Assembly: GCA_036308405.1 (NCBI GenBank)
Contig: JAXJVR010000041.1
Coordinates: 1 to 39,570, forward strand
DNA length: 39,570 bases
Origin: Acutalibacteraceae bacterium
GTDB lineage: Bacteria; Bacillota; Clostridia; Oscillospirales; Acutalibacteraceae
Reading direction: 5' to 3'
In this document: in pieces, positions 4,331-19,890 of the stretch
Numbering within the stretch: position 1 is the stretch's first letter
Layout: each line of letters begins with the position of its first letter
Notes under the pieces: generated by a model
Seen by the model: only the letters and a program-made list of their open reading frames with translations
Told to the model about the DNA's origin: nothing
The model's database searches: none
Program-made: the position numbers and the translations under genes

Positions 4331-5353
4331 TTATTCAAATTCTTCTGCTGTTTCAATTCCGTTTACTGCTGTGCAGAAAGGCTCAAATGCAGATTTTACA
4401 TCTTCAAAATTAAGTCCTAATTCATCGCATACATCGGTGTTAACGGTAGCGGTGCCGTTGTCAAAGGTTTTAACCGCCATAGAAGCGGTATCTTTGCCTT
4501 CTATAAGCACCTCGGCTATCATATCTGCGGTTTCACGACCTAAATTTGCATAGTCAACGCCGTAGCCTAAAAACGCGCCGTTTAACGCAAATGAATCTGC
4601 GCCGGTGTAATGCTTAATGCCTGCTTTGGCAAATTTTTCGTATATAGAAAGTTCGGCTGTCATAATGGTGTTATCGGTAGGTGTAAATACAACATCTACT
4701 CCGTCTGCTACAAGTGCGTCAGCCGCAAGCATTACCTCGTCAACGCCCGTTCCGGTGCGTTCTACATATTCTATGTTTTTGCTGTCGAGATATTTTTTAG
4801 CGTCGGCAATAGGTGTTGCGGATGAATCTTGACCTACATCATAAAGCAAACCAACCTTATCAACATCGTTATCAAGCGCAAATATCAGGTTCATAACAGA
4901 GTTTGTATCAAGATAATCGGATGTTCCCGTAATGTTAGCACCGGGCGCTTCAAGCGACTCAACAAGCTCGACAGAAATCGGGTCTGATACAGCCGAGAAA
5001 ATTACCGGGATACCGTTGTCTTCGGTAGCGGACTGCATTGCCATTGCAACCGGTGTTGCAACACCTACCATAAGGTCAACACCGTCGGCAATAAAATCTG
5101 CAATTATCTGTGACATTACATTTGCGTCCGCATTGCAGTTGTCATAAGAAATTTCAAACTTAACGCCCTTTTCGGTCTCAATTTCGGCAAGGCGTGATTT
5201 TATGTTGTCTATTATCTGATTAAGCGATGCATCATCGACATAATTACAAATACCTACCTTATAAGTGGTTTTGCCTGCACTGTTGTTGCTGCCGCAAGCT
5301 GCGAGTGAAAATACCATTATTAAAGCAAGAACTAAACTTATTATTTTTTTCAT
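4331..5353 (-). CDS. ABC transporter substrate-binding lipoprotein (COG2984/ABC_sub_bind type), probable tryptophan-related substrate
   Basis: Signal peptide plus lipobox (VFSLAACGS). It is the first gene after a T-box leader with a UGG specifier. Confidence 0.8.
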   Translation of the reverse strand: MKKIISLVLALIMVFSLAACGSNNSAGKTTYKVGICNYVDDASLNQIIDNIKSRLAEIETEKGVKFEISYDNCNADANVMSQIIADFIADGVDLMVGVATPVAMAMQSATEDNGIPVIFSAVSDPISVELVESLEAPGANITGTSDYLDTNSVMNLIFALDNDVDKVGLLYDVGQDSSATPIADAKKYLDSKNIEYVERTGTGVDEVMLAADALVADGVDVVFTPTDNTIMTAELSIYEKFAKAGIKHYTGADSFALNGAFLGYGVDYANLGRETADMIAEVLIEGKDTASMAVKTFDNGTATVNTDVCDELGLNFEDVKSAFEPFCTAVNGIETAEEFE

Positions 5354-5487: not shown

Positions 5488-5767
5488 AATAAAAAAGCCC
5501 TATCCCTATACTAAATAGGGACAAGACTTTGAAAATACAAATCCTGCGGTGCCACCCTTATTGATGAAATAATCATCCGCTTTGCCTTACACTGATATGT
5601 AAGCTGTTCTGTAACGGGAACACCCCGTTGACTGCTACTCGGCTCTGTGCCTTTCGGTCACCCTCATAAGTCCATTCGCCTTAACATTCACTGCTGCCAT
5701 TTCACCGTCGGCAACTCTCTGAAAGCTTCAAATTAAGGTTACTACTCTTAATCATCGGTTTTTTGTT
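5488..5767 (-). promoter_or_regulatory. T-box leader (tRNA-sensing riboswitch) with a Trp (UGG) specifier and an intrinsic terminator
   Basis: Read on the minus strand. Stem I carries the AGAGAG and GGTGAAA motifs. The specifier loop reads GCGAA-UGG-A, with the codon at 5674-5672. The T-box sequence is TAAGGGTGGCACCGCAGG (5560-5543). The terminator is AGTCTTGTCCCTAT/ttagt/ATAGGGATAGGGCT followed by a U-run (5529-5488). Confidence 0.85.
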
Positions 5768-15018: not shown

Positions 15019-15957
15019 ATGGCAAAAAAAAATAATTTAAAGGGCAGTCTTATATTGTGCACTGCGGCTTTACTTTGGGGACTTGCGTTCGTGGTGCAAA
15101 ACCGAGCCGCCGATAAAATACCGCCTTTTACATTTAATGCCATGCGCTCTTTTATAGGTGCAATATTTTTGTTTGCTTTTATGGGTATAATGTCAGGCAA
15201 AAACAAAGAATATGTGCCCATCCCCAAAAATTTTGATAAAAAACTGCTTTTTACGGGCAGTATGGTCTGCGGCGTGGTGCTTGCCGTATCGACCAACTTT
15301 CAACAGTTCGGCATAGCCGCATATCCTGACGGAGTGCCTACAGAAGCGCGCTCGGGCTTTTTAACCGCGCTTTATGTAATTATAGTGCCTATTATGTCGG
15401 TGTTTGCCAAAAAGAAAGTGCCTGCTGTGGTCTGGATTTCGGCGCTTGTGGCGCTCGGCGGCTTTTATATACTCTGCCTTTATGAAGGTGTAAGCGGTTT
15501 CTATTTTGCGGATATTTTGGTTTTGTGTTGCACTCTTGCGTTTTCAATGCACATTATCGTTATAGACAAATACTGCGGTTTGATAGGCGGTGTCAGACTT
15601 TCGGCATTTCAATTTATCTTTTGCGGTATATTTTCGGGAATAATGGCTATTATCTTTGAATTTGATAAAATAAACATTCAAAATATACTCTCGGTTCTGC
15701 CCGAAATTTTATATATGGGCATTGTATCAAGCGGAATTGCCTATACCTTGCAGATAGTAGGTCAAAAATATGCCGAACCGGCAATAGCATCGCTTTCTAT
15801 GAGTCTTGAAAGCGTATTTGCAGCCCTCGGTGGTTGGGTTATCACCGGTAACGCACTAAAAGGCAATGAAATCATAGGTTGCCTGCTTGTCTTTTCGGCA
15901 ATAGTATTAGCGCAGTTGCCCGATTTTTTCAAAAAGAAAAACACCGTAAATACTTAA
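15019..15957 (+). CDS. EamA/DMT-family transporter
   Basis: About 10 TM segments in two repeated halves, with no other motifs. Confidence 0.75.
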   Translation: MAKKNNLKGSLILCTAALLWGLAFVVQNRAADKIPPFTFNAMRSFIGAIFLFAFMGIMSGKNKEYVPIPKNFDKKLLFTGSMVCGVVLAVSTNFQQFGIAAYPDGVPTEARSGFLTALYVIIVPIMSVFAKKKVPAVVWISALVALGGFYILCLYEGVSGFYFADILVLCCTLAFSMHIIVIDKYCGLIGGVRLSAFQFIFCGIFSGIMAIIFEFDKINIQNILSVLPEILYMGIVSSGIAYTLQIVGQKYAEPAIASLSMSLESVFAALGGWVITGNALKGNEIIGCLLVFSAIVLAQLPDFFKKKNTVNT

Positions 15958-15970
15958 ATCAGGTTTACCA

Positions 15971-16010
15971 AAAAGTCTCTGCTTTCATATTTTAAGCAGA
16001 GACTGTTTTT
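15971..16010. terminator. Bidirectional Rho-independent terminator (EamA / spoIIID)
   Basis: AGTCTCTGCTT/loop/AAGCAGAGACT with an A-run before and a T-run after. Confidence 0.7.
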
Positions 16011-16021
16011 AGTTGCACGAC

Positions 16022-16270
16022 CTATTCGCCTTTGTATTTGCGTCTTGTTGCCATTCCCCCGCGTATATGTCGCTCACTCTTGTTTTTTTGCAACACAGCA
16101 TTAACCTGACTATAAAGCCTGCGATTTATATGTAAAAGCCGTTCGGTTACATCTTTATGCACCGTTGATTTGCTGACGCCGAATACCTTTGCGGCGGCGC
16201 GCACGGTGGCGCCGGTATCTACTATGTATTTACCCAACATCTCTGCCCTGTCACAAGAAAACTCTCTCAT
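16022..16270 (-). CDS. spoIIID: Sporulation transcriptional regulator SpoIIID
   Basis: GKYIVDTGATVRAAAKVFGVSKSTVHKDVTERL...RHIRGGMATRRKYK is near-identical in pattern to B. subtilis SpoIIID as I remember it. The RBS AAGGTGG favours the ATG at 16270 over the GTG at 16282. Confidence 0.9.
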   Translation of the reverse strand: MREFSCDRAEMLGKYIVDTGATVRAAAKVFGVSKSTVHKDVTERLLHINRRLYSQVNAVLQKNKSERHIRGGMATRRKYKGE

Positions 16271-16362
16271 ACTACCTACCACCTTAAATGACTTGGTAAA
16301 TTATATGAGAGAGTTGTTTTATTTATGTTTTTATAATTGTGCAAAATCTTAACATCAAAAAC

Positions 16363-17283
16363 CTATACGCTCATTTGCAAATTTTCGGTTACCCAGCGTT
16401 TGTATTTAATAAATTCCTCGTTTTCGGGCGTTACCGACAGCACAAAATTTATTTGTCCCAAAAGTTTTTGTAAATAGTGTTCTTTGGTATCTGTTATATT
16501 CTTATTTTGCATATGCGAGTCAACGCCGTATTCCATACAGTAATACATCGTCTGTCTGATTTTTCGGCGGTAAATTGCGGAGGTGTTCGCTTTTTCATTA
16601 ACAACAATACCGGTTACTATTTTCTTTTGTCCGTCACGCACAACGGTTGTCTTTTTATTATTTAGATAAAAACCGTATTTAGCAAGTTCTGATTTTACAA
16701 ATTCTATGACCTCGTTAGGTTTAAAACTGCCCGAAAAGGTCATATCGTCGCAATAACGGGTGTATGTAATACCTCCGTTTTTGCACCAAGCGCCCACCGC
16801 ATTGTCAAAATCTTTCATAATAATGTTTGAAATCGCGGGAGAAGTCGGCGCGCCTTGCGGCAACGCTTCATGAAAACTGCAAATTTGAGCCAAAATCATA
16901 GCAACTTTGTCAGAAAAAATCTCTTTTGAAAAGGCGCCTAAAATCATCGAAAAAGTAATTTTGTCAAAGAAATGGCGAATATCCAATTTTAAAAGCGTGT
17001 TGTTATTTATATGCGGTTTTGCATTTGCAAGCGGACTGCCGCCCGGTCTGTACGCGGTAGCGTATGGCGAAATCTCGATAATAGGCAAAATCACATTATC
17101 AATTCTTTTTTGCACAGTTTTAAGTTCATTATCGGGAACTGTAAGTTCGCGAAAACCGCCGCTGTTTTTCGGAACACTTGCCTTATGATAATGCTTTTCA
17201 GGTCTGTTGCCGAGTGTATATAAATGCTTTAAAGAAAAGCCCAAATCTGCGCAAAGGGAGGAAAGTTCACGATAAACAATCAT
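16363..17283 (-). CDS. Retron-type reverse transcriptase (306 aa)
   Basis: RT motifs 1-7 are present: FRELTVPDNELKTVQKRI, DIRHFFDKI, LPQGAPTSPAISN, YTRYCDDMTF and NNKKT. It also has the retron-specific signatures NAxxH (LANAKPH) and VTG (KIVTGIVVN). The RBS GGGGAGGGAAG lies 8 nt before the ATG. No extra fused domains. Confidence 0.85.
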   Translation of the reverse strand: MIVYRELSSLCADLGFSLKHLYTLGNRPEKHYHKASVPKNSGGFRELTVPDNELKTVQKRIDNVILPIIEISPYATAYRPGGSPLANAKPHINNNTLLKLDIRHFFDKITFSMILGAFSKEIFSDKVAMILAQICSFHEALPQGAPTSPAISNIIMKDFDNAVGAWCKNGGITYTRYCDDMTFSGSFKPNEVIEFVKSELAKYGFYLNNKKTTVVRDGQKKIVTGIVVNEKANTSAIYRRKIRQTMYYCMEYGVDSHMQNKNITDTKEHYLQKLLGQINFVLSVTPENEEFIKYKRWVTENLQMSV

Positions 17284-17290
17284 TAACTAA

Positions 17291-17476
17291 CTTCCCTCCC
17301 CTTTACAAAAAACGAAACAATACAGTGTTGATATTCAAGTTGCGAAACTGATTTTGGTGCACATGAAATGTGTTTTAAATCAGTGAGAGCAATCTTGAAT
17401 TGAGCATAAGCAAATGTATGCAAATGTGCAATCCCGAAAGCGACTCGCCGTTTTAACGTTTTTACAGCCTTCCCCT
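17291..17476 (-). ncRNA. Candidate retron msr/msd non-coding RNA
   Basis: Sits directly between the stop of the upstream gene and the RT start. It contains a 68-nt imperfect hairpin at 17400-17333: ATTCAAG-a-TTGC-tctc-ACTGATTT...AAATCAGT-ttc-GCAA-CTTGAAT, with an inner CACAT/ATGTG stem. Smaller stems lie 5' of it, including GCATA...TATGC. The a1/a2 repeats and the branching G are not confidently identified, so the boundaries are approximate. Confidence 0.5.
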
Positions 17477-19102
17477 TTACCACTCGTAAAAATTAACCAA
17501 AAACTGACAACTGCTGCTGAAACTCGGGTTTTTCTCTATAAATTTATACAGTGAATTATATGCTTCTGCTTTAGGTATGCTGTAGTTTTTTATGCCTTTA
17601 TATTTTTGTTTTTCTTTTAAATCATCAACAGTAAATGATTGCGAATCTGCATTATTGTCAAAATAATCATATAAATATGCCTGCGACAAATAATATTGAG
17701 CTTCTTTTGCAATTTCCGGCTTTTTACTGCAAGCAAGTTTTGTAATATACGGTATGCCCTCGTCGCCCAACTCATACATTGCATATATGTCTATGTTTTT
17801 GAGTCTGCCGGTTTTATAGGCTTCATAATTGTATTTTGCGGACACGGCATTTACATTTACCGTTCCCAAAACAAATATCACACAGCCTGCGGTTATAATT
17901 GCTGTTTTTAAAACATTTATTTTAGAAATATAAATGCGCAAAATTACACTTATAAAAACTATGGCTAAAAACAGCATAAAAGAGCTTGTCGTTATTCTTA
18001 ACACGGTCATACCGAAAGATTTTATATAAAGCACCATTTTTGAAACAGCAGTTGCAATTATTATGAGTGTAAAAACCGATATAAAGGTGCAAAAAGCTTT
18101 TATTGCGTAGTTTAATTTTCCGTTGTTTTTTTTAGATAAGAGTATACACAAAGCCGTAACGGCTAAATTTATTACGGCTATTACGCACATTTCAAAAAAG
18201 CCTTTTCGGGCGTATTGCGAAACATTAAACTTGTAACCCGACGGCAAAATCCCGCTGAAAGCGCTGAAAAAATACGCAAGCTGTGAAAACAAATAAAGCA
18301 AATAACAAGCCGATATAACGCTTAAAAAAGAAATAACATATATATTTTCAACGCCCTTAAAATTACACGGTTTTAACTGCGCACTCAAGCCTTTTTTAAC
18401 AGAAAATCCGTATGAAATTACAATCAGCGACATACCTAAACCCAATATAATTTTTAAAATTGTATTAAAAGAGTTGCTGAAAATATTTTCAACAAGTCCG
18501 CTGAACGCATCGTCAGATGAAATAAGCAACGGAACTATAATAATAAGCATCGGTATTGCGCATATCATACCGATAAATACTTTAATAACTTTTTTGCTGC
18601 CGTTACCGTCAAATAAAGATTTAACCGAAATCAAAATGTTACCAACACTTGAAAATGCCGAATAAAAAGTGTTAATAACCGCTTTGTTACCGCGGCGGCG
18701 AGTATTTATAAAACCATCAAAAAACATTATACAAAGCAAAAATATTATAATTACCGCAAAAAATTTTACACTTGCATTGGTAGTGCTTATAAACACCGCA
18801 GAATTCATTACTGTCAACAAGCCGTAAAAAACAGATGTTAATTTTATTTTTTGTTTATTTACAAAATATAAACTTATAAGCACTGTAAGCATAACCGTTG
18901 ACAGCGTATATCCGAGCGCAAAATTAAAAATTCCGAACAAAGCCGTAAAAACACAGCATACAACGGCTCCTACCGCAAATAATATATCTTTTTTATTTAT
19001 CGCAAAAGTTTGTTTTACAACTGTTGAACTATCTTTGTCTTTTTCAGAATTAAAATCTGTTTGGGCACATTCACATTCTTGAATATTATTCTCAAAATTC
19101 AT
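17477..19102 (-). CDS. Large polytopic membrane protein (541 aa), DUF4153/DUF4173-like by recollection
   Basis: At least 10 hydrophobic segments followed by a soluble C-terminal ~110 aa tail (YNYEAYKTGRLKNIDIYAMYELGDEGIPYI...). It starts 4 nt after the HTH gene stop. Confidence 0.7.
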   Translation of the reverse strand: MNFENNIQECECAQTDFNSEKDKDSSTVVKQTFAINKKDILFAVGAVVCCVFTALFGIFNFALGYTLSTVMLTVLISLYFVNKQKIKLTSVFYGLLTVMNSAVFISTTNASVKFFAVIIIFLLCIMFFDGFINTRRRGNKAVINTFYSAFSSVGNILISVKSLFDGNGSKKVIKVFIGMICAIPMLIIIVPLLISSDDAFSGLVENIFSNSFNTILKIILGLGMSLIVISYGFSVKKGLSAQLKPCNFKGVENIYVISFLSVISACYLLYLFSQLAYFFSAFSGILPSGYKFNVSQYARKGFFEMCVIAVINLAVTALCILLSKKNNGKLNYAIKAFCTFISVFTLIIIATAVSKMVLYIKSFGMTVLRITTSSFMLFLAIVFISVILRIYISKINVLKTAIITAGCVIFVLGTVNVNAVSAKYNYEAYKTGRLKNIDIYAMYELGDEGIPYITKLACSKKPEIAKEAQYYLSQAYLYDYFDNNADSQSFTVDDLKEKQKYKGIKNYSIPKAEAYNSLYKFIEKNPSFSSSCQFLVNFYEW

Positions 19103-19106
19103 AAAA

Positions 19107-19313
19107 TCAATCCCCTTCCGAATATTTAATTATGTCTCCCGGTTGACAGTCAAGCACTTTGCAAATCGCATCAAGCGTAGAAAAGCGTATTGCTTTAGCT
19201 TTTCCTGTTTTAAGTATAGAAAGATTTGCGGGCGTTATGCCGATTTTTTCCGAAAGCTCAAGCGATGTCATTTTACGCATCGCAAGCATTACATCTAAAT
19301 CAATTTCTATCAT
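19107..19313 (-). CDS. Small HTH transcriptional regulator (YozG/COG3655-like, 68 aa)
   Basis: MTSLELSEKIGITPANLSILKTGKAKAIRFSTLDAICKVLDCQPGDII is a Cro/C1-type HTH with the typical YozG-like C-terminus. Confidence 0.8.
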   Translation of the reverse strand: MIEIDLDVMLAMRKMTSLELSEKIGITPANLSILKTGKAKAIRFSTLDAICKVLDCQPGDIIKYSEGD

Positions 19314-19328
19314 AAAATACCTCTGTCT

Positions 19329-19796
19329 TTATATTGTAAGTTGATTTTCTTCGCTAATTTCGACGGCGTTCTGCATAACATTTTTTACAATGCGAAGCAT
19401 AAGACCTACAAATGCGGCAGCCGCTGTTATAAAAAGAAACGGAATATAGAATATTCCCCCGACAAGCGTTATAACTGCAACCGCAAAACAACACCAAGAA
19501 ATACGGCGAAGATACTTTATATTTTGTGTAATAAATATTTCTTCTTTTTTTATATTGAAAAGCAATTTTATAAGACTGTAAAGGGTTACATAAGCAAATA
19601 TCGCGCAGGGATAAAAACACGCTTTAAACAAAACAAGCATTTTATTTAGAGCAAAACCGTTTTTGTCAAAGCCGCGGTATGCTGTAAACCAAATTTCTAC
19701 AATTTTAGGTCCTGCAAAAACAAGAACCGTAAGAATAGCCAAAAATGCAAAGCAAACCGCAATAGATAATATTACCGAGCGTTTTCTGTTCCACAT
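19329..19796 (-). CDS. DUF2975-like four-TM membrane protein (155 aa)
   Basis: The start is moved to ATG 19796 (MWNRKRS...), which is preceded by GGAGG. The longer track ORF would begin inside the promoter -35 element. The C-terminal ...EENQLTI ending is as in DUF2975 proteins that pair with YozG-like regulators. Confidence 0.7.
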   Translation of the reverse strand: MWNRKRSVILSIAVCFAFLAILTVLVFAGPKIVEIWFTAYRGFDKNGFALNKMLVLFKACFYPCAIFAYVTLYSLIKLLFNIKKEEIFITQNIKYLRRISWCCFAVAVITLVGGIFYIPFLFITAAAAFVGLMLRIVKNVMQNAVEISEENQLTI

Positions 19797-19827
19797 AAAA
19801 TTACCTCCGATGGAATTATTTGTTATT

Positions 19828-19890
19828 ATAATATCATCAAAATTATCGTTTGTCAATAATTATTTTATTGAAAAACGATAATTTATTATC
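19828..19890 (-). promoter_or_regulatory. Promoter plus palindromic operator for the membrane/HTH/(retron) operon
   Basis: Minus strand TTGACA (19856-19851), 17-nt spacer, TATTAT (19833-19828). A 39-bp palindrome at 19843-19881 (TTATCGTTTGTCAATAA-ttatt-TTATTGAAAAACGATAA, 17-bp arms, one mismatch) overlaps the -35. A second palindrome, GATAAT-tt-ATTATC, lies at 19877-19890. Confidence 0.55.

Follow-up and report, generated by a model that had tools for sequence, protein, structure and literature searches.

A probable scar of a recently inactivated Ec107-like retron in a contig of an Acutalibacteraceae bacterium

The 39,570-nucleotide (nt) contig JAXJVR010000041.1 of an Acutalibacteraceae bacterium (assembly GCA_036308405.1; this whole stretch is hereafter called the window) encodes a 306-amino-acid (aa) retron-type reverse transcriptase (RT) next to a sporulation gene, and the question raised by this locus is what has become of the other retron components. 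The original prediction described an RT with an upstream structured RNA and no recognisable effector, and left a choice between an effector-less retron and a retron served by an unclassified partner. The analysis reported here suggests a different answer: the locus is probably the scar of a recently inactivated retron, belonging to the known effector-less clade-2 Ec107-like lineage of gut Clostridia, and is predicted to be negative for multicopy single-stranded DNA (msDNA). The RT gene itself was delimited as follows.

16363-17283, minus strand: retron reverse transcriptase, clade-2 Ec107-like; 306 aa from an ATG start, an intact but chimeric open reading frame (ORF)

The ORF is a genuine retron RT. 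Its translation was found to contain every motif quoted in the original prediction (FRELTVPDNELKTVQKRI, DIRHFFDKI, LPQGAPTSPAISN, YTRYCDDMTF and NNKKT), together with the retron-specific signatures LANAKPH (NAxxH, region X) and KIVTGIVVN (VTG), and motifs 1–7 are complete, with a YxDD box that reads RYCDDMTF. The best PADLOC model was RT_Ec107-like, aligned end to end with 411 bits (7.7e-124), followed by RT_III-A (348 bits; the RT_III-A models span 348 to 239 bits), whereas the type VI RT model reached 204 bits. The NCBIfam retron St85 model fell slightly below its cutoff (232 vs 235 bits). The hidden Markov model (HMM) check called for in the original prediction was thus borne out, and the clade-2 Ec107-like classification was adopted because the HMM ranking, the homology of the noncoding RNA (ncRNA) described below and the literature agree. 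The closest validated system is Retron-Eco5 (Ec107) of E. coli, the source of msDNA-Ec107, which likewise has a minimal RT of about 310 aa, 42% identical to the window protein over 281 aa, and shares its YCDD catalytic box (PMC6868368), an unusual feature that was singled out for Ec107 by Simon et al. 2019 (PMC6868368).

It is extremely improbable that the protein is instead an RT of group II intron, abortive infection (Abi)/unknown group (UG)/defence-associated (DRT), diversity-generating retroelement (DGR) or CRISPR-associated type. The generic RVT_1 domain, and nothing further, could be cited for such an origin; it was the only Pfam domain detected (residues 37–216, 81.7 bits), and the absence of any maturase, endonuclease or fused domain was confirmed by the same scan. 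The 25 PADLOC matches listed for the RT were all to retron RT models. Group II intron RTs are expected to bring maturase/X and often endonuclease (En) domains and an intron RNA, but the group II RT/maturase model TIGR04416 gave 82.9 bits against a cutoff of 300, the Drt2/3a/4 models gave at most 62 bits against cutoffs of 200–450, and Rfam revealed no group II intron RNA. Moreover, the remnant of a retron RNA (msr-msd) lies directly 5' of the RT gene.

The RNA of this family was reconstructed from relatives. A protein search with the window RT gave 5764 homologues (E <= 1e-20), most of them about 55–60% identical, 300–310 aa long and from metagenome-assembled genomes of Clostridia, and 82 family loci (80 GTDB species plus others) served as the neighbourhood sample. 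The upstream regions of relatives align well, and a consensus was derived from a trimmed alignment of 25 of them. In this consensus the 5' end, a1 (GcGGAACA), pairs with the 3' end, a2 (UGUUCCgc), in a covarying duplex of 8–12 bp, and between them lie two msr hairpins (1 and 2), the latter with CGAGUCG as an invariant loop region, and a long msd hairpin. At the 3' edge of a1 stands nUAG, in which an invariant AG is shared by the 25 family sequences and E. coli Ec107; by its position, and by analogy with retron biochemistry, the G of UAG would be the branching residue. Compensatory changes were seen in 26 of the 32 base pairs of the alignment, and paired cells made up 95.8%. No shuffled control out of 500 attained the observed values, and sliding the 3' partners lowered pairing to about 35–44%. 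A covariance model built here from the relatives, R1, stands in for the published Ec107_like covariance model; it matches the same strand directly 5' of the RT in 74 of the 82 loci, many of them outside the training set. The experimentally validated msr-msd of E. coli Ec107 is recognised by R1 too (48 bits, E 2.7e-11), in an alignment that covers a1, AUAG, the two hairpins and a2. Taken together, the alignment and the model provide a well-supported ncRNA structure for the Clostridia branch, linked to the validated Ec107 msr-msd. A TATAAT-like box was also seen about 6–10 nt 5' of a1 in many family members (L005-L031 and others), which places the expected start of the ncRNA transcript at or very near a1; in contig L087, from the same species as the window, the best promoter-like site lies about 40 nt farther 5' than this box does in other members.

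When the window was compared with this consensus and with two contigs of the same species, L085 (RT 97% identical) and L087 (RT 99% identical), only the 3' part of the RNA could be found, preceded by an unrelated joint.

17308-17451, minus strand: 5'-truncated msr-msd remnant, recognised by R1 (50 bits, E 5.5e-11) and by blastn homology to L085 and L087
17452-17476, minus strand: 25-nt joint without homology to the intact retron; it follows the stop codon of an upstream gene for a DUF4153 protein and replaces the promoter and the 5' end of the ncRNA

About 144 nt of the ncRNA are present by R1, which scored the window at 50 bits (match at 17308-17478(-), with the positions of a1, UAG and hairpin 1 gapped or mispaired) against 121 bits in the near-identical L085 and L087, where a perfect 12-bp a1/a2 duplex, UUAG and both hairpins occur. 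The blastn homology of the window to these two contigs starts exactly at 17451. The retained part comprises the 3' portion of msr hairpin 2 with the family-invariant GCGAGTCGC (17440-17448), the remaining msr, the msd hairpin (about 17334-17399, inner stem 17348-17383), the GCGAGUCGC hairpin loop and a2 (UGUUUCGUUUUU, 17308-17319). The msd stem-loop, whose pairs covary across the family, is therefore recognisable in the window and aligned to R1 with high posterior probability. The missing part corresponds to the first 58 nt of the ncRNA (L087 7775-7832), which comprise a1, UAG, hairpin 1 and 4 nt at the start of hairpin 2, and the promoter-like TTTACA-17-TATACT of L087 (L087 7709-7737) has no counterpart. 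Consequently, a2 is left without a1, and the nUAG segment with the presumed branching guanosine is lacking; no a1-UAG motif was found anywhere in the window when up to 3 mismatches were allowed. Part of the joint, TGTAAAAACG, is similar to the 5' half of a1 (TGTTAAAAACG in the intact copy), and the lesion may accordingly be an internal deletion of about 51 nt, with TGTAAAAACG as a relic of a1, rather than a clean breakpoint; UAG and hairpin 1 are lost in either case.

Thermodynamic folding agreed with the alignment. The intact RNA forms an end duplex, with 14.5 expected end pairs, compared with 6.7 for the window RNA, whose minimum-energy fold holds no canonical a1/a2 duplex. The claim that a hairpin-rich stretch of about 190 nt precedes the start codon was partly sustained, in that 17308-17451 is derived from an msr-msd by R1, but the predicted folding energy of the 193-nt upstream gap did not improve on shuffled sequence (z = -0.56), single-sequence folding being uninformative here. 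No Rfam retron RNA family was detected, either at gathering thresholds on the whole window or in E-value mode on 16000-17800, the single Rfam match being a T-box elsewhere. The intact msr-msd/RT layout that the original prediction had proposed could not be upheld, given the loss of the promoter and of the 5' 58 nt with a1, UAG and hairpin 1.

The origin of this lesion was traced in sister strains. The exact DUF4153 protein occurs on hundreds of contigs, and the long ones among them show two arrangements. About 15, up to 157 kb in length, have the order of the window (DUF4153, 193 nt, 306-aa RT, spoIIID). About 5, of the L088/L093 type, carry DUF4153, the same 25-nt joint, the truncated ncRNA and nt 1–329 of the RT gene, and then unrelated genes. 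L088 and L087 overlap at 99.97% identity, which reveals a second haplotype consisting of a dead retron fragment, an island of about 9.4 kb, a complete retron with its promoter, ncRNA and RT, and spoIIID. The island (L088 7149-11626 plus L087 1-7770) is absent from the window and is bounded by 497-nt retron-derived direct repeats; it encodes a mechanosensitive (MS) channel, a flavodoxin-like protein, STAS, an SDF transporter, a WYL-domain protein, SHOCT, several ORFs without a Pfam match, and a toxin/immunity pair made up of a 531-aa Endonuclea_NS_2 toxin and a YezG-like immunity protein. No integrase was seen in the island. The left (dead) and right (intact) retron copies share the 497 nt at 95.4% identity, the longest identical run being about 78 nt, and the sites at which they differ allowed the window to be assigned to one copy or the other.

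17175-17180, minus strand: crossover interval in the RT gene, at codon 35–36 approximately, between informative sites of the left and right copies

From 17412 to 17180 all 9 informative sites of the window carry the left-copy state, whereas all 14 between 17175 and 16961 carry that of the right copy, which also continues past 16961; the crossover is single and clean. The RT ORF thus took its 5' 104 nt or so from the remnant copy and the rest from the intact copy. Four other island-less contigs (L089-L092) cross over elsewhere, at 17412/17373, 17356/17301 and 17053/16975, with one mosaic in addition, compared with 17180/17175 in the window. Some of these differing joins could be artefacts of short-k assembly; as far as can be judged from the sequences, the varied crossover points favour recurrent loss of the island by homologous recombination. 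The event may have been a deletion or a Campbell-type insertion, recurrent deletion being favoured. If the island is lost between the repeats, each product inherits the truncated 5' junction. The locus offers, in any case, a clear natural example of island gain and loss via recombination between retron copies.

An unlikely alternative is that the hybrid was created by the assembler, which would have collapsed the 497-nt, 95%-identical repeats, while the real genome would hold both the island and an intact retron. Repeats around a 9.4-kb segment are a classic cause of such errors, one of the island-less contigs (L090) was assembled with short k-mers (Logan), and the exact window hybrid was found in no other assembly, neither by a 67-nt crossover search of metagenome contigs nor by a look-up of the exact RT protein. 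Nevertheless, the longest identical run of about 78 nt between the copies should not be merged by large-k assemblers, the island-less order recurs in the long contigs described above, which come from varied samples and assemblers, and a crossover confined between informative sites 5 nt apart (relative to L088/L087) is unexpected from k-mer collapse.

The following course of events is consistent with these observations. In intact members, a promoter just 5' would drive an ncRNA of about 180–200 nt whose ends pair as a1 and a2; the RT would bind the msr hairpins, and the 2'-OH of the UAG guanosine beside a1 would prime reverse transcription of the msd hairpin into msDNA, as judged from the covarying structure and from the retron biochemistry of Ec107, Ec86 and others. 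Recombination between the 497-nt repeats would then remove the island and join the shortened ncRNA with a complete RT ORF, exactly as observed in the window. The window RT may still be expressed by read-through, but in the absence of a1 and of the priming G it is most likely unable to make msDNA in cis. The window allele is predicted to yield no msDNA, and an allele of the L087 type to yield it. An intact retron RT ORF is accordingly not evidence of an intact retron, and annotation pipelines based on the RT only would over-count such alleles.

Several points weigh against inactivation. The RT ORF is intact and retains every family-invariant residue (75 of the 75 columns invariant among 24 family members). 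Among long contigs with the same DUF4153 the island-less order is the commoner one, about 15 vs 5, which implies that it is not strongly counter-selected and could have some function. A 7-nt a1-like AAAAACG in the joint, with G residues after it, remains complementary to CGUUUUU of a2. Finally, the genome may possess another ncRNA copy beyond the window. A functional orphan retron could be built on these points, in which the read-through truncated RNA primes through AAAAACG/CGUUUUU and a nearby G, or in which the ncRNA is supplied in trans, and the persistence of the msd hairpin, a2 and the GCGAGUCGC loop would suit it. This reading is nonetheless improbable. The invariant AG of UAG and hairpin 1, conserved in 25 of 25 aligned members and in E. 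coli Ec107, are gone, the minimum-energy fold contains no a1/a2 duplex, and the R1 score has dropped from 121 to 50 bits. The integrity of the ORF is uninformative if the recombination is recent, in which case an intact RT ORF is to be expected; the part of the RT gene 3' of the crossover shows a single difference from the intact copy. Likewise, dN/dS between strains was uninformative on selection on the RT, the counts being too small and mosaicism a confounder.

It was also considered that the retron-derived 497-nt repeats might act as a recurrent recombination switch, the headless form having an activity of its own through non-canonical priming or an RT acting in trans. This is a rather remote proposition. 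If it were true, looping out of the 9.4-kb island would leave, in place of a live orphan retron, an RT whose template RNA is headless, and the island-less allele would owe its high frequency to selection rather than decay.

The original prediction was right that no classical effector lies nearby: PADLOC found no retron effector among the 10 proteins flanking the RT in the window. It had treated this as unusual, but the absence, although real, is an already documented trait of the Ec107-like lineage and hence not new. The clade-2 Ec107 branch was reported to lack an associated protein, a phosphoribosyltransferase (PRTase) neighbour being present in only 2 of 59 members, and its members were named orphan retrons (Mestre 2020, PMC7736814). 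In a 2026 SPIRE survey, clade2_Ec107like ranked second in abundance among retron groups; it was 93% Bacillota and 91% host-associated, and no accessory module recurred (bioRxiv 10.64898/2026.05.14.725207). The 82 loci examined here behaved in the same way. All-against-all clustering of five genes per side of each RT, the co-occurrence check called for in the original prediction, yielded no recurrent neighbour family, the largest cluster being present at 12 of 82 loci in scattered positions and the next largest at 4 or fewer. In a PADLOC scan of the 150 immediately flanking proteins of relatives each family was limited to 4 proteins at most, and PRTase, ATPase/HNH and TOPRIM were absent. The possibility, raised in the original prediction, that homologues carry a classical effector that has been lost here received no support from these 82 loci and 150 proteins, in which none recurs. 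The locus therefore adds little to retron biology, the missing effector being a published hallmark of the clade, and the role of orphan Ec107-like retrons without an effector is a question made no more tractable by this window.

Individual candidates for a hidden effector were rejected. Small downstream ORFs in two relatives (L001, 187 aa; L004, 113 aa) have no Pfam match and neither cluster nor recur, and the space between the RT and spoIIID in the window is only 80 nt. A 66-aa GTG ORF at 17283-17483 (-) was judged spurious; it overlaps the ncRNA remnant, has no PADLOC match and lacks a ribosome-binding site.

The genes on either side of the RT and its ncRNA remnant were identified as follows.

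16022-16282, minus strand: spoIIID, housekeeping sporulation regulator (Pfam SpoIIID 1.8e-36; TIGR02844 112.9 bits vs a cutoff of 111.5)
17477-19102, minus strand: DUF4153 membrane protein, 541 aa, multi-pass (Pfam)
19107-19313, minus strand: HTH_26 regulator, XRE-type, 68 aa (Pfam)
19329-19856, minus strand: DUF2975 protein (Pfam)

The identification of the downstream gene as spoIIID was thereby secured; it is found 3' of the RT in every strain of the species and is not an effector. The three genes on the other side, DUF2975, HTH_26 and DUF4153, form an apparent operon whose proteins are 100% conserved across strains of the species, with a near-consensus promoter-like TTGACA-17-TATTAT with TG at 19856-19828. 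The DUF4153 stop (17477) is separated from the RT start by the 193-nt gap, and neither a promoter-like nor a terminator-like site was found between DUF4153 and the RT. Read-through from the promoter-like site at 19856-19828 is thus the sole apparent source of RT transcription.

That one of these three genes is the unclassified partner is very improbable. They lie on the same strand as the RT with no terminator-like site between DUF4153 and the RT, and the 68-aa HTH protein, the only one of the 10 flanking proteins with a related match, has some similarity to HTH_VI (19.6 bits, E 2e-4). This match is weak and generic, however, and the HTH_26 protein was rejected as a type-VI-like HTH effector, the RT not being of type VI. 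At the 81 other family loci the RT never has any of the three as a neighbour. The intact retron of sister strains lies 9.4 kb away, beyond the island, and different genes adjoin its promoter, while L085 has yet another upstream sequence, different from those of both the window and L087. The adjacency seen in the window arose through the event that destroyed the 5' end of the ncRNA; it is a by-product of the lesion, with no functional linkage. DUF4153, HTH and DUF2975 are consequently context and not retron partners.

Comparison with the nearest known systems places the locus, most likely, as a known kind of retron that is locally degenerate and not as a new defence system. The E. coli Ec107 retron, retrieved between pyrE and slmA as in the literature, has its ncRNA directly 5' on the same strand, with the same architecture as the family, including the GCGAGUCGC hairpin loop. 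Like the window RT, it has no dedicated effector linked to it and sits among housekeeping genes without an obvious mobile element. It differs in its host, an enterobacterium as opposed to a spore-forming Clostridia-type bacterium, and in possessing a1, UAG and hairpin 1, all three of which the window copy has lost. The clade2_Ec107like lineage (Mestre 2020; SPIRE) supplied the HMM that matched the window RT best; its lack of an accessory module agrees with the 82-locus analysis, and its bias towards Bacillota with the thousands of Clostridia homologues. Its members were scored as an RT with a detectable Ec107_like ncRNA, whereas the window holds a 5'-truncated ncRNA and an RT recombined from two copies. 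The type III-A retrons, composed of an RT and a PRTase-like effector with or without a winged-helix protein, form the sister clade, in line with the second rank of the RT_III-A models, but a PRTase-like or winged-helix gene was absent both from the 10 flanking proteins of the window and from the 150 flanking proteins of relatives.

Two further observations were made in the surroundings of the locus. A T-box leader (Rfam RF00230, 113.8 bits, E 1.3e-24) is located at 5514-5764 (-), 5' of a 340-aa ORF at 4331-5353(-). The EamA transporter gene at 15019-15957 (+) is the most divergent of the neighbourhood between strains, with pS values of up to 0.11 compared with 0.05 or less in the flanking genes, which suggests local recombination or a diversity hotspot beside spoIIID.

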